A stretch of DNA of 64,000 nt from Anaerolineae bacterium (GCA_046328535.1 JAXLWJ010000031.1:109-64108); one strand, 5' to 3'. Counted from the stretch's first letter, positions 32,356-44,202 are shown. Translations and numbers: made by a program. The notes: generated by a model not told the origin, from the letters alone.

Positions 32356-33729
32356 ATGAGCGCTATGTCCTCACATCAGACCCCCGACGAATTGTGGCAA
32401 GCCGCCCTGGGCGACCTCGAGCTGAGCGTCACGGCGGCGACGTATGACACATGGCTGCGGCCCACGCGCGCTATCGGCTTTGACGGCGACCTTCTGCTCA
32501 TCAGTACGCCCAATGCGTATGGCAAAGACTGGATTGAGAACCGCCTCGGCGCCGAAGTGCGCCGCGCCATCAGCCGCATCGCGTGCCGCCCCCTCGACTT
32601 CCGCGTCGTTGTCAGCGCCAGCAGCGCCAACGGGAACCGCCCCATCGAGTCGCGCTCGACCGGCGAGAACGGGAGTAAGCCTCACACCCCCAAGCCCAGC
32701 CAGGCGACCCTCACCCTCGAGCGTCCCGAGCTAAACGCCAAGTACACCTTCGCCAACTTCATCGTCGGCGACAGCAACAAACTCGCCGTGGCCGCCGCGA
32801 GCGCGGTCGCCGAAAGCCCCGCCAGCCGCTTCAACCCGCTGTTCCTCTACGGCGGGGTCGGGCTAGGCAAGACCCATCTCCTGCAAGCCATCGGCCACCA
32901 CCTGGCGGCCCGCCGCTACCGCGTGCGCTACGTGACGACCGAGACGTTCACGAACGACCTGGTCGGCGCGATCCGCACCCAGACCCAGGAAGAGTTCCGC
33001 AACCGCTACCGCCAGGTGGACGTCCTCCTGCTGGACGACATCCAGTTCCTCATCGGAAAGGAAATGACCCAGGAAGAGGTCTTCCACACGTTCAACGCCA
33101 TGCACGGCGCCAACCGCCAGATCGTCATCTCCAGCGACCGCCGGCCCCACGCTCTGATGCCCCTGGAAGCGCGCCTGCGCTCCCGCTTCGAGGCCGGTCT
33201 CGTCGCCGATATCCAGCCGCCGGACCTGGAGATGCGCATCGCCATCCTCAAGTCCCACGCCGAGGCGAAACACCTCGCCGTCTCGGACGACGTGCTCCAG
33301 ATCATCGCCCAGCGTGTGCAGAGCAACATCCGCGAGCTGGAGGGCGCGCTCGTGCAGGTCGTCGGCCGGACGCAGCTCACCCACGAACCGCTGACCGTTC
33401 AGACGGCGCAGCGCATCCTGAGCGCCGACGTCGCCCGGCCGGCGCCGGGCATGGACGTCATCCTCGAAGCTGTGGCCGAACACTACCGCGTCTCCCTGGA
33501 GGAGATGCTGAGCAGCAAGCGCACCCAGCGCATCGTCACCCCGCGCCACGTCGCCATGTACCTCATGCGCGAGGACGGGCGCGCGTCTCTACCCCAGATC
33601 GGGCTGAAGCTGCGCCGCGACCACACCACCGTGCTCCACGGCATCGAGCGAATCGCGCAGCAGGAGGAGACCAACGAGGCCTTGCGCAAGGACATCATCG
33701 CTATCCGCGAGCGCCTTTTCCGCCGCTGA
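32356..33729 (+). CDS. dnaA: chromosomal replication initiator protein DnaA
   Basis: N-term ..LWQAALGDLEL...TYDTWL; Walker A GGVGLGKTHLLQAIG; Walker B LLLDDIQF; sensor/Arg finger; C-term DNA-binding ..RHVAMYLMRE...SLPQIGLKLRRDHTTVLHG. Confidence 0.97.
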   Translation: MSAMSSHQTPDELWQAALGDLELSVTAATYDTWLRPTRAIGFDGDLLLISTPNAYGKDWIENRLGAEVRRAISRIACRPLDFRVVVSASSANGNRPIESRSTGENGSKPHTPKPSQATLTLERPELNAKYTFANFIVGDSNKLAVAAASAVAESPASRFNPLFLYGGVGLGKTHLLQAIGHHLAARRYRVRYVTTETFTNDLVGAIRTQTQEEFRNRYRQVDVLLLDDIQFLIGKEMTQEEVFHTFNAMHGANRQIVISSDRRPHALMPLEARLRSRFEAGLVADIQPPDLEMRIAILKSHAEAKHLAVSDDVLQIIAQRVQSNIRELEGALVQVVGRTQLTHEPLTVQTAQRILSADVARPAPGMDVILEAVAEHYRVSLEEMLSSKRTQRIVTPRHVAMYLMREDGRASLPQIGLKLRRDHTTVLHGIERIAQQEETNEALRKDIIAIRERLFRR

Positions 33730-34420: not shown

Positions 34421-35185
34421 ATGGACGTGAAACCCATTCGGCAGTTGAAACAAAACGTGACGGACGCGCCTAAGAAGAGCGTCAAGCTCGCGCAACACAC
34501 GGCTCACACAACCTTCCGCATCACGATCGGCTCTATCGTCACCACGGAGCAGGAATCGGTGCGCGCGGTTCGGGCGGTGATTCGGCGCGGTCGTGGTCAC
34601 CCGCCCGAGTGGCGCGGTCGTTGGCCGCGCCGCCTGCGCCGCCAGAGCGAGCGCGACTTCGAGAAGTACATCGAGGATTACGTCAGATACCTCCTTCAGA
34701 TCCGTCGGATGCCGACGCTCACTGAGGTCAAGCAGCTCGAAGAAACCATCGGCCGCCTCATGCAGGCCCTGGACCAGGTGATCGAGGAGAAGACGCGCGT
34801 CAAGGCGGAGCACGCCGGCGAGGTTCCGTCGGAGTGGCTCGAGGAGATGGCCGCCATGCTCGGCCGCAAGCCGCGCCCGAGCGACATCCCCGCGGCGCCG
34901 CCGCCCCTCGTCAGCGCGCCGCCGCCCGTCGGCGATCCTACGCCCGTTGCGGACGGCGCGCCGGCGCGCGCTGACGGGACAAGCGCCCAGGCGGCCAAGT
35001 CGGTCCCTCGCATGAAGGAGCCGTTCCCCGGCTACCGGACCCTGTCTGCGCCCCAGATTCTGATGCAGATACCCGCCCTGACGCCGCAGCAGCTGCGGCA
35101 CGTGCAGCAGTATGAAGAGCGGCACCATCGGCGCATCACCATCCTGCGCGCCGTCGAATCGCAGCTCGCCGCGCTGGGCGCGTAG
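34421..35185 (+). CDS. hypothetical protein adjacent to oriC
   Basis: 254-aa ORF, charged coiled-coil-like middle, Pro/Ala-rich linker, conserved-looking C-terminal PGYRTLSAPQILMQIPALTPQQLRHVQQYEERHHRRITILRAVESQL. Confidence 0.5.
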   Translation: MDVKPIRQLKQNVTDAPKKSVKLAQHTAHTTFRITIGSIVTTEQESVRAVRAVIRRGRGHPPEWRGRWPRRLRRQSERDFEKYIEDYVRYLLQIRRMPTLTEVKQLEETIGRLMQALDQVIEEKTRVKAEHAGEVPSEWLEEMAAMLGRKPRPSDIPAAPPPLVSAPPPVGDPTPVADGAPARADGTSAQAAKSVPRMKEPFPGYRTLSAPQILMQIPALTPQQLRHVQQYEERHHRRITILRAVESQLAALGA

Positions 35186-35211
35186 TCTGAAGAGGTCCTG
35201 TCGCGCCGAGT

Positions 35212-35392
35212 TAGTGCAAGGACACCGGACCTGATAGGCTATCCAGGCCCGCCTGCCCGTCGAACGGGCAGGCTACGACAGGCAAGCCTGAGAGGCTCCC
35301 TCTTAGCCCCTCGGGCTTCCATCCCGTAGCGCGACGCTCGAAGCGTCGCGCGGGCGCACGATGCCGAACATGTCCTCTGATTATGCATTAGG
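35212..35392 (+). repeat. family-S structured element, copy B
   Basis: 27 nt after stop of 34421-35185; colinear with copy A over full length. Confidence 0.8.
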
Positions 35393-35599
35393 AAGGCGTT
35401 CCGAGAAGAAAATCCAATAGACGCACAAGCCACCCGCCTCGAGTTCCGTGGCGGACCGGTCTGCCACATGACTCGGGACAGCGTGTCTCGGGGGGACAAC
35501 GATGCTGGCCGGGGGCGGATACCATCTAGAGCAGGTTCTCAGCCGCGCTGGTTGCAGCGATATGCGCGGAGGGGGAATCTGCTTTTTTTGCGTCCCGTG

Positions 35600-35621
35600 G
35601 AGACGCGCCATGGCGCGTCTC
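35600..35621. repeat. family-N perfect palindrome GAGACGCGCCATGGCGCGTCTC
   Basis: Second, longer copy at 60934-60965. Confidence 0.8.
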
Positions 35622-35636
35622 TACTAGGAGGATACC

Positions 35637-38600
35637 ATGCCATCACTAAAGAGAGCTTTCGCAAATCTCAAACGTTTCGGACAATGGCTCCCGTTGCTGA
35701 CGCTTCTCATCGCCGCCGGCCTGCTCGGCTTCCTGCTCGCCCTGCCCGCCGTCGCCGGTCCCGCCGCCCAGGAACCAGCGGCCTTCCACGGGCAGGGCCG
35801 TGTGAGCCGGCCAATCACGCTGGACCATCCACTGCCGTCGAGTCCCGTGTTGAAGCTCCCGCTCAAGGCGGACGACTGGACGGTGCTGCTCGACGAGAAT
35901 TTCGACGGTGTCTGGCCGAACGGCCTGTGGTCAACGCGGGATGCCAACGGCGCGACGGGCGGGGAGTACTACTGGGCGAACCGCTGCGCCAACGGTGCGA
36001 ATCACCTCAACTGGGCGATAGGGGGTGGAGGGAACGGTTCGACCCTGCCGTGCGACGGTCCCTATGCCGCAAACACCAACTCGTGGACGTTTTACGGTCC
36101 GATTGACTTGACGAATGCCACGGCCGGCCTGCTCTACTACGACTACTGAACGGCGAGCTGGTGCTCTGGCGCCAACTGCTCCGGTGGGGCAGACTATCTC
36201 AAGGCTCTCGTTTCGATTGACGGTTACAACTTCTACGGCCACTGGACGGCCGGCCATAACGCGGATTGGTCGCCCTACTGCGGGCGCGACCACCTTGATC
36301 TCAGCAACATTGACGGCGCCGGTACGAGCGCTCTCGGCCACTCGCCGGTGTGGGTCGCTTTCGTTTTCCAGAGCGCCAGCGCCGCGACGCGCCCCAACGA
36401 CTTTGGCGCGTACATTGACAACGTCCAGCTGACCGTCAATACAGTGGAATGCGCGGCGACGGCGACGATCAACACCCTGACGACGGACACGCACTGCTAC
36501 GTCCCCGGCGCGACCATTGGCGCGTTCATCGCCATCGGCAGTCCATCTAGCCAGTCGGTGCGTGTCGAAGCCGACCTCTGGGCCTCCGGCGGCGACACGA
36601 TCTGGGGCCACGCCGAGCGCACCGTGACCGCGCCCGGCTCCCTGGTGCTGCCGGTGCCCATCACGAGCGCGCCCGCGCCGTTCCCCGGCGACTACGACCT
36701 GATCGTGAGCGTCTACGACGCCAGCGGCGCCTGTCTCCAGGACACCAAGAAGGTCACGGTGCGTGTGAACCCGACGTGCGGGTCGGTGACGCCGCCCATC
36801 TCAGTGACGCCGACACCGACACTGACAGTGACATGGACACCGACGCGCACCGTCACACCGTCGCCGTCGGTGACGCGAACGCCGACGCCAACCGCCAGCT
36901 TCGGACCGACGCTCTGCCCCGGCCAGTCGGCGCACGAGACGAAGCACATCTACTTGCCGCCCGCGCCGGGGCGCGCCGACATTGTCTTCGCCTTCGACGC
37001 CTCGGGCAGCATGCGCAATGAGATTGGCGCGGCCCAAACCAACGCCATCGGGATCATGAATGACCTGGCCGCCCTGATCCCGGACGTTCAGTTCGGCGTC
37101 ATGGACTTCCTCGACTACCCCAGTGACCCCTATGGCGGGACCAACGACCACGCCTACTTGTTGCGCCAGGCGGTCACCGGCAATCGCGCCGCCGTTCAGT
37201 CGGCCATCAACGCGATTACGACGGGCTATGGCGGCGACGAGCCGGAGGCCTACACCCGCGCCCTCTACGAAAGCTACTCCGACGGGGCCATCGGTTGGCG
37301 GCGCGACGCCCGACGCTTCGTGATCATGTTCGGCGATAGCGTCGCCCACGACGACAACCTGAATTACGGTGTCCCCAGCCCACCCTATCACGCCGGCGCG
37401 ACCTGGCGCACCGGCTACGCGCCGAGCTATCTCGATCCGGGGCGAGACGGAGTCCCCGGCACCGGCGATGACCTGGACCTTCAGACGGTGCTGCGCGGCA
37501 TGGAGGCCAGCGGCGTCACGCTGCTCTTCGTGGTCCCCAATCACTACGCGCAGATATTCCCCGACCTGCCATCGGCCAGTGTGGACACCCTCTACGCCTA
37601 CTGGCAGTGGTGGGCCGACCAGACCGGCGCGGGCGGGGACGCGGTGAAGCTGGCGAACGCGGCGGACCTGCCGACGGCGATTCGGAACCTCGTGACGTCG
37701 GCGAGCAGCCGCATCTCGCGGCTGGAATTGCTGACCGATCCGCCAGACTACCAGTCGTGGCTGACCGTCAGCCCGCTGGCCTACACCAATCTAGTGATTC
37801 CGCCATCCGGCTTGACCGTTGATTTCGAGGTTGACATCCGTGTCCCGCCGGGGACGGCCGTCGGGCGAGACTACGCCTTCGCCGTGCGCGCTATCGGCGA
37901 CGGCGCGGTCTACGGCGGTCAGGGTGTTGTTGTTCATGTGCCCGCGAACTGCATCACGGTGACGCCGACGCGAACGGCGACCCCGACGGCGACGTGGACG
38001 CCCACGCCGACCGTGACGCCGACCTGTGTGCCGCCCAGACCCTCAGTCGTGCCAGAGTGTCCGCCGAACAGTGCGCCGAATGCCATCCGCAACCCGCACT
38101 TCTACGACGGCAACCGCAGCTGGGGCGAGTACAGCCGGCTTGGGCGCGAGCTTGTCGAGACGAGCGACGACCGCGCCGTCTTCGAAGGGCCGCCGGGGGT
38201 CGCTACCCACGAGCTACTGTATCAGATGGTCAGCATTCCGCTGGACGCGCAGAGCGTCAGTTTCTGGGTCGGCGACCACGGCGGGTTTGCGTCGTGGTGG
38301 GGCAGCGGCGACCCGCAGCAGATTCCGGCGAATGAGCCGAACTTCCTGCGCGCCTCGATCTACGACATGACGCTGACCACGGAGCTGGTGCGCCTGTGGC
38401 AGGTCAGCCTTGTGCGGCAGCCGGGCTGCGATCAGGACGCGCCGACCTACAACCTGACGGCCGATGATCTGGCGCTCGTGCGCGGCCAGACGGTCGCCGT
38501 CGTCTTCGAGTTCCAGAAGACGACCACCGTCTACAACTTCACCGCCGGCGGCTACGCGGACGATATCCACCTGCACGTTTGCTCGCCGAGCGGGCCGTGC

Positions 38601-40481
38601 CACGTCAACCGCGACAAGACGGCCAGCCCGACGACGGTGCAGCCCGGCGGCGAAGTCACCGTGTTCCTCGACCTGGCGGGCCTGGATGGCGCGTGCCTGC
38701 CGGCGCGCCAGCCGGTGGATGTGATGCTCGCCATGGATCGGTCCGCCACAATGGCCGGACTCAAGCTCGCGGCCGCCAAGACCGCGGCGAAGGGCTTCTT
38801 GGACCGGCTGGACATGGCGACGGACCAGGCGGGGCTTGCCTCGTTCGATAGCTCGTCGGGGCTTCTGGACGCGGCTCTGACATCGAGCCTCGGGCCGGTT
38901 CGCGCTGCCATTGACAGTCTGGTGGCGGGCGGCACGATCAGAGACATGACCCTCGGCATCAACATCGCGCAGTCTGAGCTGGCCGGCCCGCGCCACCGGA
39001 CCGGCGCCACGCCGATCATGATCATCCTCAGCGACGGTCGTCCGACCACGACTGATGCGCGGACCGCGGCAGCGGCCGCGAAGGCCGCCGGCACACGCAT
39101 CTTCACCATCGGCCTGGGCAACAACGTGGACGCGAGCCTGATGCGCGACGTGGCCTCCTCGCCGACCGACTATTACTACGCGCCGGACGCGGCGGGCCTC
39201 GACGCCGTCTACCAGCAGATCGCCGGCGCCATCGGCGGCGCGCCCGCGACGAACATCGTCATCACGGACCGGCTGTCGCCCTACGTGACCCTGGTCCCCA
39301 ACTCCTTCAGCGGCGCGCCGCCGCCGAGCGTGAGCGCCGACGGCAAGACGCTCACCTGGCGTATTCCGCGCCTGGGCCTGGAGACGCGGCGCTGGAGCTA
39401 TCGCGTCACGATGACCCAGACGGCCGGTACGTGGCCGACGAACGACTACGCCACGGCGACGTACACCAACTCGCGCGGCCAGCCGGGCAGCCTGACGTTC
39501 CCGATTCCGCAAGTGACCGTCCTTCCACCGGCGGCCAAGAACCCGCAGGTGATGTGCAAGGACTATCCCTCCGATAGCGGGCGCGTACCGTCGAACCCGA
39601 ACGGCGAGGCGTGGTGGGATAGCCCCGACATCTGGGTGCGCAACGGCCCCGACGGCGTGGAGATTCACCAGAATCCCATCGCCGGACAGCCAAACACCGT
39701 CTATGTCCGGGTGCGCAACATCGGCGACGCGGGCGTGAACGATATCCGGGTGCATCTGTACGACGCGCCCGGCGCGTCCAATATCCGCTGGCCGGATGAC
39801 TGGGTACCGGAGATCGGGTCGGCCACTATCCCGCTGCTGGCCGTCGGTCAGAACGGCATCGTCGCCATCCCGTGGACGCCGACGAACGAGGGCCACTACT
39901 GCTTCCTGGCGCGCATCGAGGCCCCGACCGACCCGATCACCGCCGACGGCTGGGTCCCCTTCGACAACAACCTGTGCCAGAAGAACACGCAGATCATCGG
40001 CGGCGGCGCGTCGAGTGGCGCGGTGAGCGTCGGCAACGCCAACCACGGGAGCGGCTACGGCTCAGCCACGATCAGCTCGCCGCCGGTAGCGCCCGGCACG
40101 GGCGTCCGCGCGACCTTCACGGACCCGACGGTGTTCAACCGCTGGCAGGGGGCCGGCGGGACGGTCACTGGCGGGGCCGTCATTCCCGGCACGACGTCCA
40201 TCCAGCTCGGCACAACGCCGACGTCGCCGATGTGGGTGATGGGGCAGGAGTCGCTGGTGGGCGACGCGGCGGCGGTGGTGAGCGCGACCATTGACCGCAT
40301 CCCGTTCGCCGGCGACGAGAAGACGCAGATCGTGTTCGACGTCTCGACGCCGGCCGGCGCTGACCCGCCGACGCTCACCGTGACGCAGTACGTGGATGGG
40401 CTGGCGGTCGGCGGCAACGTGCTGCGGCCGCAGGCGCAGCCGATGATCTACCTGCCGTTGCTGACGATGCGCGGGCCGTGA
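35637..40481 (+). CDS. giant secreted protein (2 vWA domains, Thr/Pro linkers) interrupted by one in-frame TGA at 36147-36149
   Basis: TAGGAGG RBS + signal/TM (WLPLLTLLIAAGLLGFLLALPAVAG) only at 35637; 35637-36149 and 36150-40481 share one frame with no other stop; MIDAS motifs DASGSM (about 36990) and DRSATM (about 38740). Confidence 0.7.
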
Positions 40482-40770
40482 GGCATCCCTCCATCCCCCG
40501 GCCCTTCCTCCCAGAACGGGAGGAAGGGGGGTCAGAAAACTTCTCCCGCCCCTCTCCCATTTTGGTTCAAGGGTGGACAGGCGCGAGTTTGGGGCGATCT
40601 TGTCCCATTTCTGGCCCCCCTCTCCCTGTGGGAGAGGGTTGGGGTGAGGGTCTTGAAACCTGGCGAGCCTCTTAAGACCCTCACCCAGCCTCTCCCAGTG
40701 GGAGAGGGGCCAGACCTTTCCGCCCCTGAACCCATTTTGGGAGAGGGGACGGGGGTGAGGGACAAAGACG
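40482..40770. repeat. family-P hairpin cluster (at least 5 hairpins) between convergent genes
   Basis: 40486-40570 is an inverted copy of 29869-29955; GGGTGAGGGTCTT...AAGACCCTCACCC (40640-40686); CCTCTCCC-agt-GGGAGAGG etc. Confidence 0.75.
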
Positions 40771-40820
40771 CGCCCAGTGGGCCATGGTTCGCTGGGCGCG
40801 TGGATTCCGACACGTAACGA

Positions 40821-41207
40821 TTATGAATATTCAGATGACGCCGTGAGTAGTGGAAGACGGTGAACTCGGATACGTCCGCGATGGACGGTGACAAGCGCGC
40901 CCGCGTCGAGGTCGGTTCCACACTGCTCGATGACGTACAGAAGTAAGGCGACTAAAGCAGGACCGCGCAAACTCTGGAGTCTGACTCGGATGACCGAGGG
41001 GGTAGTGTGACCTGCGAGAGCCATTAGGGTGTGGAAATCCGCGTCCAGCGTGACCACGACGCGAGTCTCTTCACGCGCCTTTGCCAGTATGACGATATCC
41101 TCAGCCGTTGCATAGCCTATATCGCCAACATGGACAGTATCAATACCCGCTTCGTTGAGCAGCCTCACCGCCGAACGTGGTAGACCCTGGTCAAGAAGCA
41201 GCTTCAT
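40821..41207 (-). CDS. DUF5615/Mut7-C-like PIN-fold putative toxin
   Basis: MKLLLDQGLPRSAVRLLNEAGIDTVHVGDIGYATAEDIVILAKAREETRVVVTLDADF. Confidence 0.65.
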   Translation of the reverse strand: MKLLLDQGLPRSAVRLLNEAGIDTVHVGDIGYATAEDIVILAKAREETRVVVTLDADFHTLMALAGHTTPSVIRVRLQSLRGPALVALLLYVIEQCGTDLDAGALVTVHRGRIRVHRLPLLTASSEYS

Positions 41208-41808: not shown

Positions 41809-44202
41809 TTAGGCGTGGCGGGCGACGGGTTGCGCCGGCGCGCCGGCGGCGTTCGCCGGCGCGTGGAGCTTGGGCTTGTAGTTCAGCAGGCGCAGGCCGT
41901 TCAGGACGACGATGACCGTGCTGCCCTCGTGGCCGATGACGCCCAGCGGCAGCCCGATCACGCCGACGAACGTGGACAGGATGAGGATGACGATGACGCT
42001 CAGGGCGAAGGCGAGGTTCTGCTTGACCACCCGCGTCGCCTGCCGCCCCAGGGCGATGGCGTAGGGCAGCTTCATCAGGTCGTCGGCCATCAACACCACG
42101 TCGGCCGTCTCCAGCGCCACATCTGATCCCGCCGCGCCCATGGCGATGCCGACGGTGGCGGCGGCCAGGGCCGGCGCGTCGTTCACGCCGTCGCCGATGA
42201 CGGCGGCGTCCCCATACTGCGCCTGGAGCGCTTTGGCGAGGCGCACCTTGTCGGCGGGCAGCAGCTCGGCGTGGACCTCGTCCACGCCGGCCTGGCGGGC
42301 AATCGCTTCGGCGGCGCGGCGGTTGTCGCCGGTGAGCATGACGACCTTCTGCACGCCCAGCCCCTTGAGCGCCGCAATCGCGGCGACGGCCTGGGGCCGT
42401 ATCGTGTCGGCGACGGCGATGAGGCCGAGGGGCCGGTCCGCGCCGACGGCGACCACGGTCTTGCCCTGGCTCTCCAGGGTGGCGAGCTGCGCCAGCGCGC
42501 CTTCGCCGATGGTGGCCCCCTGCTCCGCCGCCAGGCCCGGCTTGCCGACCCAGACGACCCTGTCGTCCACCGTGCCGAGGATGCCCTGGCCGTGGAGCGC
42601 CTTGCCGTCCTTCGCGGCGGGGACCGGCAGGCCCCGGTCCCTGGCGGCATTGACGACGGCGGTGGCGATGGGATGCTCGGACAGGCCCTCGACGGCGGCG
42701 GCCAGGCGCAACACCTCGTCCTCGGTCGCGCCGTCGAACGCGACGATGTCCGTCACCTTCGGCCGGCCGTAGGTCAGCGTGCCGGTCTTGTCGAAGGCGA
42801 CGACCTTGATGCCGGCCGCGTTCTCCAGGTGCGCGCCGCCCTTGAACAGGATGCCGTTGCGCGCGCCGTTGGCGATGGCCGACAGGAACGACGCCGGCGT
42901 CGAGATGACCAGGGCGCACGGCGACGCCACGACCAGCAGGGTCATCGCGCGGTAGAAGGCCGTCGAGAAGTCCTGGCCCAGCACGAGCCAGGGAACGACG
43001 ATCATGATCGCCGTGACCGTGACCACACCCCAGGCGTACTTCTCCTCGAAGGTCTCGATGAACCGCTGCGTCGGCGACTTCTCGCTGCGCGCTTCCTCCA
43101 CCATCTGCACGATCTTCGCCAGGGTGGTGTCCTGGGCTGTCTTGGCGACGCGCACCTCGAGCGCGCCGGAGCCGTTCAAGGTCCCGGCGAATACCGTGTC
43201 GCCGGTGTCCTTGTCCACCGGGACGGACTCGCCGGTGATGGCGGCCTGGTCCACCGCCGACTGCCCGACGACGATGGTCCCGTCGGCCGGGATCTTCTCG
43301 CCGGGGCGGACGAGTACCATGTCGCCGACGGCGAGGGCCTCGACCGGGACGACGCGCTCCTCGCGGGCGCCGTTGACCAGGCTAATGCGCGTCGCCTGCT
43401 GCGGGCTGAGGTCCATCAGGGCGCGGATGGCGTTGCGCGTGCGGCCAAGGGCGTAGTGCTCCAGGGTGTTGCCCAGGGAGAAGAGGAACAGCAGGACTGC
43501 GCCCTCCTCCCAATGGTCAATGGCCGCCGCGCCGAGCGCCGCCGCCACCATCAGGAAGTCCACGTCGAGGGCCAGGGAGAAGAGCGCCTTGATGCCGTTC
43601 TGCGCGGCGTAGAAGCCACCGGCGATGTAGGAGCCGATGAAGAAGGCGAGGGCGAGGTTGTGGGGGCCGCCGAGCCACTGGGTGAGAAGTCCGCCGACCA
43701 GGCAGACGCCAGCCACCGCCGTCAGGAAGGCGTCGCGGTGCTTGACCCAGACCGGCTCCTCCTCCTCGTCTTTCGTGCGCACGTGGTAGCCCATGTCGGA
43801 GACCTTGCGCTCGATCTCGGCGGGGGTGACGTCGGCCACGTCGTATTGCACGCCGAGGACGCCGGCGGCGGGGTTGGCCGAGGCGTGGACGATGCCTGGC
43901 ACAGCCGTCAGGCCGTGCTCCAGGCGCAGGGCGCACTGGTCACACGTCAGCCCGGTGACGCCCATGGCGCACGCCTGGAACTGGCGGCCCAGGGTGATGC
44001 CGAGGTCATCGGCGACGCCCTCGACGGTCACCAGCGAGGCGCGCTCAGGGTCGTACTTCAGGGTCAGCACCGAGCGGCTGGCGTCGAGTTGGGCGCCGAG
44101 GATGCCGTCGTTGGTGGTCAGGGCCTCGATGAGGGCGTCGGCGCAGTAGTGCGGCTCTTGCTCCGGCATCGTGACCGGGATAGCGATTTCTTGCGTTTTC
44201 AC
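41809..44202 (-). CDS. heavy-metal translocating P1B-type ATPase (SPC / HEGST signature, N-terminal HMA domain)
   Basis: DKTGTLT, TGES, GDGVNDAPAL; TM motif VVASPCALVISTP; HEGSTVIVVLNGLRL; HMA with CDQC. Confidence 0.9.
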   Translation of the reverse strand: MKTQEIAIPVTMPEQEPHYCADALIEALTTNDGILGAQLDASRSVLTLKYDPERASLVTVEGVADDLGITLGRQFQACAMGVTGLTCDQCALRLEHGLTAVPGIVHASANPAAGVLGVQYDVADVTPAEIERKVSDMGYHVRTKDEEEEPVWVKHRDAFLTAVAGVCLVGGLLTQWLGGPHNLALAFFIGSYIAGGFYAAQNGIKALFSLALDVDFLMVAAALGAAAIDHWEEGAVLLFLFSLGNTLEHYALGRTRNAIRALMDLSPQQATRISLVNGAREERVVPVEALAVGDMVLVRPGEKIPADGTIVVGQSAVDQAAITGESVPVDKDTGDTVFAGTLNGSGALEVRVAKTAQDTTLAKIVQMVEEARSEKSPTQRFIETFEEKYAWGVVTVTAIMIVVPWLVLGQDFSTAFYRAMTLLVVASPCALVISTPASFLSAIANGARNGILFKGGAHLENAAGIKVVAFDKTGTLTYGRPKVTDIVAFDGATEDEVLRLAAAVEGLSEHPIATAVVNAARDRGLPVPAAKDGKALHGQGILGTVDDRVVWVGKPGLAAEQGATIGEGALAQLATLESQGKTVVAVGADRPLGLIAVADTIRPQAVAAIAALKGLGVQKVVMLTGDNRRAAEAIARQAGVDEVHAELLPADKVRLAKALQAQYGDAAVIGDGVNDAPALAAATVGIAMGAAGSDVALETADVVLMADDLMKLPYAIALGRQATRVVKQNLAFALSVIVILILSTFVGVIGLPLGVIGHEGSTVIVVLNGLRLLNYKPKLHAPANAAGAPAQPVARHA

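Follow-up and report, generated by a model that had tools for sequence, protein, structure and literature searches.

A conserved in-frame UGA in the gene of a large secreted vWA protein from an Anaerolineae bacterium very probably encodes selenocysteine and is accompanied by a candidate SECIS hairpin

Introduction

To our knowledge, the selenoproteins known from bacteria are almost without exception redox enzymes of the cell interior or the periplasm, in which selenocysteine (Sec) replaces a catalytic cysteine. The prototype of the underlying genetic system is E. coli fdhF, and its cis-acting element, the Sec insertion sequence (SECIS), is captured for bacteria by the bSECIS model of Zhang and Gladyshev (summarised in PMC13188914). 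In that consensus, a loop of 3-9 nt with G at positions 1-2 caps a stem of 4-16 bp, the UGA-to-loop distance is 16-37 nt, and the minimum free energy is -7.5 kcal/mol or lower. Here we describe a gene in a 64,000-nucleotide stretch of DNA from an Anaerolineae bacterium (GCA_046328535.1, JAXLWJ010000031.1:109-64108), referred to below as the window and numbered from its first letter. The gene encodes a large secreted protein with von Willebrand factor A (vWA) domains. Its frame, opened by ATG at 35637 and closed by TGA at 40479-40481, contains one internal stop, a TGA at 36147-36149.

Comparative sequence analysis indicates that this internal UGA is very probably a conserved Sec codon accompanied by its own RNA hairpin, and not the mark of a broken gene. 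The reading that we regard as highly likely is a single gene at 35637-40481 in which codon 171, the UGA, is decoded as Sec by SelA, SelB and tRNA-Sec with the help of an intragenic SECIS hairpin. Specifically, the UGA would be read by the organism's own SelA/SelB/tRNA-Sec system, with a 7-bp hairpin carrying a GGN loop inside the coding sequence recruiting SelB and Sec-tRNA while the ribosome pauses at this codon; the TGA at 40479, without such a hairpin context, would terminate the gene. Selenium insertion and SelB binding to the hairpin are predictions from sequence.

Conservation of the in-frame TGA

The TGA is flanked by the residues ...TNATAGLLYYDY on its upstream side and TASWCSGANCSGGADYLK... 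on its downstream side, and the earliest in-frame ATG, GTG or TTG past it is GTG 36348, 66 codons away. A six-frame search covering 41 related genomes, with the window's own genome designated G000, recovers the orthologue from three further species (G001, G003 and G009), each time interrupted by a single in-frame TGA. G001 and G003 belong to the same genus as the window species and show 84-85% identity over open frames of 1,654 and 1,643 aa, and G009, from a different genus, keeps the TGA at 74% identity. The TGA codon columns of these orthologues coincide in both the protein and the DNA alignments. Additionally, a search with the 170-aa fragment yields two further TGA contigs: L029, an independent ENA assembly of the window species with 99% protein identity and an identical TGA, and L027, a Logan metagenome contig with 82% identity that carries the TGA followed by a 3-nt insertion. 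The distinct TGA sequences number five (G000, G001, G003, G009 and L027). Four come from Anaerolineae species in two genera and the fifth is the metagenome contig; their proteins are 74-85% identical, and the TGA is retained across them at a synonymous divergence (dS) of 0.5-1.0. The closest TGA-free orthologue, G007 (JAHCIP01 TGS_CHL14, 55% identity), has TGT, encoding Cys, at the TGA column. No further Sec orthologue is found in the GTDB order, which comprises only 35 genomes, and two metagenome scans, one by protein pattern and the other by exact 20-nt probe, return no match.

The frame downstream of the TGA is under strong purifying selection. Its ratio of nonsynonymous to synonymous substitution rates (dN/dS) is 0.11-0.26 at dS 0.5-0.8 (Nei-Gojobori, against G003 and G001), and the 66 start-less codons between the TGA and GTG 36348 give 0.11-0.16 by the same method. 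No ATG, GTG or TTG occurs within those 66 codons in four of the five TGA sequences, and about 1,440 codons past the TGA are free of any further stop or frameshift in G000, G001 and G003. Because the 66 codons immediately past the TGA are under purifying selection and lack a start codon in four of the five sequences, they must be translated by read-through of the UGA. Given the lack of a start codon there in four of the five, the orthologues do not end at this position ahead of a separately initiated downstream gene, the arrangement that would have spoken against the original prediction of an interrupted gene.

TGA is nevertheless an ordinary stop in this organism. It is the commonest stop codon of the genome, ending 40% of long open reading frames (ORFs) with high G+C at third codon positions (GC3), and it also terminates dnaA (33727-33729) and the present gene. 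A global reassignment of TGA, which the original prediction had already considered unlikely, is excluded by this usage.

Two other sequences were evaluated and rejected. Contig L028 (ENA ERZ27282990 k141_1393451, P0006), a candidate sixth Sec sequence, resembles G007 (about 97%) up to a 28-nt block common to both and is 100% G009 beyond it. Such an abrupt switch probably marks a chimeric assembly, though recombination between Cys-type and Sec-type alleles is possible. P0161 (L030:2165-2510, JGI 3300010938, Ga0137716_10004798) was considered as a truncated Sec form and is a 60%-identical orthologue with a different N-terminal module. Its in-frame stop is a TAG located in that different module, where it parts a 103-aa signal-peptide ORF from the remainder (...GSYYQ, stop, GWAKTC...), and this single sequence may reflect an error, a pseudogene or read-through.

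Candidate SECIS hairpin

A SECIS-like stem-loop, which the original prediction had proposed to look for, is present at 36176-36192 (plus strand). This candidate element begins 26 nt past the UGA and consists of a 7-bp stem closed by a 3-nt GGN loop, placing the loop 33 nt from the UGA (36 nt in L027). The window sequence, CUGCUCC-GGU-GGGGCAG, folds at -10.2 kcal/mol with a z-score of -3.2, and the version in G001, G009 and L027, which has GGAGCAG as its 3' arm, folds at -11.1 kcal/mol with z about -4 (overall range of z, -3.2 to -4.1). All five Sec forms fall within the bacterial consensus (PMC13188914) on all four counts, namely loop, stem, spacing and energy. The Cys form of G007, CUGUUCU-GGC-GGGGCGG, reaches -4.2 to -5.3 kcal/mol and lies outside the energy limit, its stem having decayed to G·U pairs. 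A fold of the wider region around the TGA shows no excess of stability over shuffled sequences (z -0.72), and the local 17-nt hairpin alone stands out.

The codons that build the stem are themselves informative. They specify Cys-Ser...Gly-Ala as UGC-UCC...GGR-GCA, a spelling retained in five of five Sec forms even as the wobble base in the loop varies freely (U, A or C), and the G007 Cys form uses UGU-UCU...GGG-GCG at the same codons. Within the gene, GCA accounts for 4 of 185 Ala codons (2%), UCC for 10% of Ser codons and GGR for 24% of Gly codons. As a baseline, an identical codon is found across four genomes at only 30% of the four-fold codons of conserved residues elsewhere. The retention of rare codons in the Sec forms, together with their drift in the Cys form, is read as selection on RNA structure.

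A separate observation concerns the upstream side of the UGA. The eight preceding codons (36123-36146, AGLLYYDY) show zero synonymous variation among the five Sec sequences, which may reflect a further constraint at the RNA level or mere coincidence (odds roughly 0.1). In an alternative fold, the 3' arm of the hairpin can base-pair with the upstream segment CUGCUCUACU.

Selenocysteine machinery and other selenoprotein genes

The genes selA, selB and selC, which the original prediction had also marked for a search, are all three found in G000, an Anaerolineae metagenome-assembled genome of 4.89 Mb with 66% G+C and 68% completeness. Its tRNA-Sec (Rfam, 70.7 bits) is of the canonical bacterial kind: the acceptor and T stems have 8 and 5 bp, the D stem has 6 bp, the variable arm is long, the anticodon is UCA and the discriminator base is G73. 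SelA scores 434 bits and SelB 301 bits, the latter over the NCBIfam cut-off. The remaining TGA carriers likewise have SelA and SelB, and SelD is found in G001, G003 and G009. The Cys-form genome G007 retains SelA and tRNA-Sec, which refutes the idea that this genome is devoid of Sec machinery.

Moreover, two previously unannotated selenoprotein gene candidates, both Pfam-verified, are encoded in G000. One is a DsbA/Thioredoxin_4 lipoprotein with the motif FSDFQ-U-PFC (G000:C41:13063, plus strand) and the other an AhpC-TSA_2 protein with the motif FLRHYG-U-LFP (G000:C19:20443, plus strand); both types are known selenoprotein families (PMC9312934 Table 1). In the DsbA-like gene, the best hairpin lies at the identical 33-nt spacing. 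The combination of tRNA-Sec, SelA, SelB and TGA-containing genes of known families means that Sec decoding is in use in this organism, exported proteins included. The two candidates come from a crude GC3-based genome-wide scan for split ORFs, which missed the vWA gene through its thresholds and served for positive controls only.

Other genes of these genomes also contain an in-frame TGA. SelD of the sister genomes itself carries one, as in classical Sec-SelD, at G001:C16:1358026-1358964, G002:C11:68578-69516 and G003:C8:1380926-1381864. In G000, outside the window, a gene resembling cobalamin-independent methionine synthase (Meth_synt_2, E 5e-35; G000:C26:1771-2874, minus strand) has one in-frame TGA at 2274 (...RRTFM-U-ATLA...), with a good hairpin bearing a CGUGAU loop 18 nt downstream. 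This TGA is kept in G003 and G009 at 89-90% identity, and homologues at 57-60% identity are stop-free. The gene may encode a second new selenoprotein of the lineage, its family being absent from the 2022 list of selenoproteins (PMC9312934).

The jelly-roll domain and the residue at position 171

The UGA lies within an N-terminal domain, at about residues 78-268 (35868-36440), that is modelled as a β-sandwich of jelly-roll type and belongs to a very large family. An AlphaFold (AF2) model of residues 1-330, built from a 12-sequence alignment, has a predicted local distance difference test (pLDDT) score of 62 overall and 73-90 in the core, and places residue 171 at the end of a β-strand spanning residues 161-172. 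Foldseek matches this domain at probability 1.00 to the gingipain cleaved-adhesin domain, several carbohydrate-binding modules and MAM domains (3m1h, 8jiy, 5l73; E 6e-5 to 5e-4). No Pfam family matches the jelly-roll domain, and the fold assignment rests on this moderate-confidence model; the family itself comprises 1,170 homologous representatives at E <= 1e-3. No thioredoxin Pfam match is found in the protein, whose motif is U-T-A-S-W-C and not UxxC.

The column occupied by Sec is aromatic in most of the family. Remoter homologues have Trp or Tyr there, including seven in the first alignment; Trp, the commonest residue at the column, occupies it in 35 of 71 aligned family representatives, and W or Y is present in all 24 additional vWA orthologues. 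The expectation that orthologues would carry Trp at this position thus holds for the distant homologues, with Trp or Tyr, but not for G007, the TGA-free orthologue nearest to the window gene, where Cys is found. Two neighbouring cysteines, Cys176 and Cys181, are conserved alike in W-, Y-, C- and U-forms. A third, Cys215 (codon 36279-36281; SPYCGR, or APWCTG in G007), is present in the Sec/Cys clade and in none of the 24 W/Y-type orthologues. Cys is rare at this column, with two aligned cases in about 150 family representatives, both without Cys at column 171.

From this co-occurrence we infer that residues 171 and 215 form an extracellular selenylsulfide, or a disulfide in G007, with Cys215 as the proposed partner of Sec171. 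In this small clade, a position that is Trp or Tyr in the wider family became Cys or Sec together with the new Cys215, and the 171-215 bond would either stabilise the domain or act as a redox-reactive site. A considerably more tentative extension, which we regard as possible and on balance doubtful, is that this is the first secreted, adhesin-like, non-oxidoreductase family of bacterial selenoproteins. Under this proposal, Sec would have arisen at an ancestrally aromatic structural site, possibly directly from TGG when a single transition recruited a chance hairpin coded by Cys-Ser/Gly-Ala as a SECIS, and the extracellular Sec-Cys215 selenylsulfide would give a redox-switchable or covalently reactive surface site.

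Weighing of the selenocysteine reading and its alternatives

Several observations weigh against Sec decoding. The protein is not an oxidoreductase, and the Sec sequences number only five and the Cys homologue only one. Unusually for a selenoprotein, the column of the Sec is filled by Trp or Tyr and not by Cys in the wider family. Within the hairpin, stem variation amounts to one wobble switch (U-G/U-A) without true compensatory change, and the third base of the loop varies (U, A or C), whereas the E. coli-type GGUC loop requires U. An Rfam scan of 35000-41000 finds no SECIS and returns only spurious miRNA-like matches on a downstream palindrome, and SelD is missing from the G000 assembly, whose completeness is 68%. 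A consensus-conforming hairpin, moreover, follows 11% of random TGA triplets in the genome, and 4.5% are followed by one at -10.2 kcal/mol or lower. Because random TGAs also pass at this rate, the hairpin alone is weak evidence, and its support comes from conservation and the rare codons.

The prevalence of Trp in the wider family (35/71) and of W or Y in the further vWA orthologues (24/24), the single transition separating TGG from TGA, and the A that follows the UGA in five of five sequences would all suit a leaky stop. In such a case a near-cognate tRNA, most likely tRNA-Trp, would restore the ancestral Trp, and the stop would throttle full-length output so that mostly the 170-residue fragment is made. 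However, the nearest TGA-free orthologue has Cys and not Trp, the new Cys215 arose jointly with the Sec/Cys state, and the rare-codon hairpin is kept in TGA forms only. Together with SelA, SelB and tRNA-Sec, the other selenoprotein candidates of the genome and a 170-aa product that would be half a β-sandwich, these observations make a leaky stop improbable.

Recoding of the UGA to Cys by a tRNA-Sec-like tRNA-Cys (selC*) acting with a SelB paralogue, as described by Mukai et al. (PMC5389517), likewise predicts a conserved UGA, a hairpin and a Cys homologue. Such tRNAs are defined by U73, are accompanied by a second selB and were not found in Chloroflexi (PMC5389517). In the 68%-complete assembly of G000, the sole tRNA found with a UCA anticodon is of the 8/5 type with G73, and only one SelB-class gene lies above the cut-off, which renders this explanation very unlikely.

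Gene callers annotate two products (P0002 and P0003 of 170 aa; P0157-P0159 of about 1,377-1,398 aa), and the GTG at codon 237 is conserved, as would be expected for a 170-residue secreted protein followed by a downstream protein initiated at GTG 36348. This arrangement is hard to credit, given that the 66 codons from TGA to GTG evolve at omega 0.11-0.16 within the same β-sandwich domain, that the downstream protein would begin in mid-domain without a signal peptide, and that the TGA-free orthologues are all single proteins.

A young pseudogene produced by TGG-to-TGA mutation, or a sequencing or assembly error, both raised in the original prediction, has nothing in its favour except the stop itself and is refuted by the TGA kept in five diverged lineages at dS 0.5-1.0, the roughly 1,440 intact downstream codons under purifying selection and the concordance of independent assemblies such as L029. 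The third option raised there, programmed recoding, is supported, and specifically as selenocysteine.

Gene layout

The gene is a single 1,614-codon unit on the plus strand (35637-40481) for a secreted multidomain vWA protein with the predicted Sec at codon 171, an arrangement supported by the orthologous frames. The original prediction of a frame of about 1,600 codons split by a lone TGA agrees with this layout, in which the TGA at 36147 is the only internal stop. The ribosome-binding site that it reported is the Shine-Dalgarno sequence AGGAGG at 35626-35631, with the ATG starting 5 nt further on. The proposed signal or transmembrane segment corresponds to a predicted signal peptide of the general secretory (Sec) type at residues 1-40 (…LALPAVA|GP; 35637-35756), called by eye from a K/R-rich start, a hydrophobic core and AVA at residues 38-40; the structural model has a helix at residues 4-34. 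Its further claims, that one domain is cut by the TGA and that the downstream part has no ATG of its own, are borne out by the strand at 161-172, which runs across the stop region of the jelly-roll model, and by the 66-codon distance to the next possible start.

The jelly-roll domain is followed by the vWA modules. The first vWA domain (residues 448-571 matched; 36978-37349) contains the metal-ion-dependent adhesion site (MIDAS) motif DxSxS as FDASGSM and gives weak matches to VWA_4 and Integrin_beta. The second (residues 1028-1192; 38718-39212) matches PF00092 with E 1.6e-25 and 90.8 bits against a cut-off of 23.8, and has MDRSATM at the MIDAS position. A GBS104-like tip-pilin immunoglobulin (Ig) domain (residues 1206-1293) and a CARDB-like domain (residues 1343-1427) occupy 39252-39917, both slightly under the Pfam cut-offs. 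The order of signal peptide, jelly-roll, Ig-like domains, two vWA domains and pilin-tip-like Ig domain points to a large secreted adhesin-like protein, for which an adhesin function is suggested.

Genomic context

The gene is preceded by dnaA and followed, on the opposite strand, by a DUF5615/PIN-like gene and a P-type ATPase gene with a heavy-metal-associated (HMA) domain. The DUF5615/PIN-like gene, a possible toxin of a toxin-antitoxin pair, lies at 40824-41207 (minus strand) and the heavy-metal P-type ATPase gene at 41812-44202 (minus strand), and neither has an evident functional link to the selenoprotein. The syntenic dnaA-to-ATPase locus L031 (GCA_039810265.1, JBDHWS010000025.1:22175-32904) encodes a 1,909-aa paralogue, P0165, whose signal peptide is 63% and first vWA domain 69% identical to those of the present protein. 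The N-terminal module of P0165 differs, and a W-less jelly-roll domain stands at its C-terminus. The swapped N-terminal module shows that modules are shuffled at this locus, which encodes a modular, fast-evolving surface protein.

About 130 nt past the gene stop, a 105-nt near-perfect hairpin is located at 40610-40714 (-79 kcal/mol, z -6.8). This palindrome is a dispersed repeat with at least 12 near-full-length copies at 87-96% identity on other contigs, resembles repetitive extragenic palindromic (REP) or miniature inverted-repeat transposable (MITE) elements, and is the source of the miRNA-like Rfam matches.

Comparison with known systems

If a giant secreted protein with vWA domains does have a conserved Sec in its structural β-sandwich, the known uses of selenium become wider, and the natural W/Y-Cys-Sec series at one position would offer material for studying the birth of a Sec codon and its SECIS, which here consists of the codons for Cys-Ser-Gly-Gly-Ala themselves. 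The annotation is also corrected, in that the database entries "170-aa hypothetical protein" and a truncated "VWA domain-containing protein" represent one gene. Selenoprotein finders that depend on many Cys homologues would overlook such cases. Among the 87 prokaryotic selenoprotein families listed in 2022 (PMC9312934) there is no vWA, adhesin or jelly-roll family. Nor is one mentioned among the nine families added by deep-Sep (PMC12013277), in the 2026 review or in the BSepDB text (as distinct from the BSepDB family table).

The closest genetic parallel is with the bacterial selenoprotein genes that carry an intragenic SECIS. These share with the present locus an in-frame UGA, a hairpin 16-37 nt further on, a G at the start of the loop, a Cys orthologue, the presence of selA, selB and selC, and a gene split by annotation pipelines. 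In contrast to them, the host here is a 1,614-residue secreted adhesin-like protein, its homologues mostly carry Trp or Tyr in place of Cys, and the loop of the hairpin is a GGN triplet whose third base varies.

Among exported proteins, the DsbA-like, DsbG-like and thiol:disulfide interchange UxxC selenoproteins (PMC9312934 Table 1) are likewise extracytoplasmic and have Sec near Cys, and one of them is encoded in the same genome (C41:13063), which supplies the same machinery. The present protein, however, has no thioredoxin fold; it combines U-x4-C-x4-C with the distant Cys215 in a domain that Foldseek places among jelly-rolls. The predicted TonB-dependent receptor, MtrB/PioB, trypsin-like protease and SaoB/SaoC selenoproteins (PMC12013277, PMC9312934, bioRxiv 10.1101/2022.07.06.499078) also have Sec outside the cytoplasm and no obvious oxidoreductase role, and are known from comparative genomics only. 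Their folds and families are unrelated to those described here, and none has vWA or cleaved-adhesin/MAM-like domains.

At the level of protein architecture, the nearest likeness is to the Gram-positive pilus-tip adhesins GBS104 and RrgA, which are secreted and modular and in which a GBS104-like Ig domain comes after a vWA domain bearing the DxSxS MIDAS motif; in the present family, the N-terminal module swaps among close relatives. Unlike those adhesins, this protein has no visible sortase LPXTG signal, is much larger, belongs to a Chloroflexota host and carries the Sec codon. Viewed against these systems, the proposed mechanism is the known one, and what is unusual is the secreted, non-redox host protein and the Trp/Tyr-Cys-Sec column.

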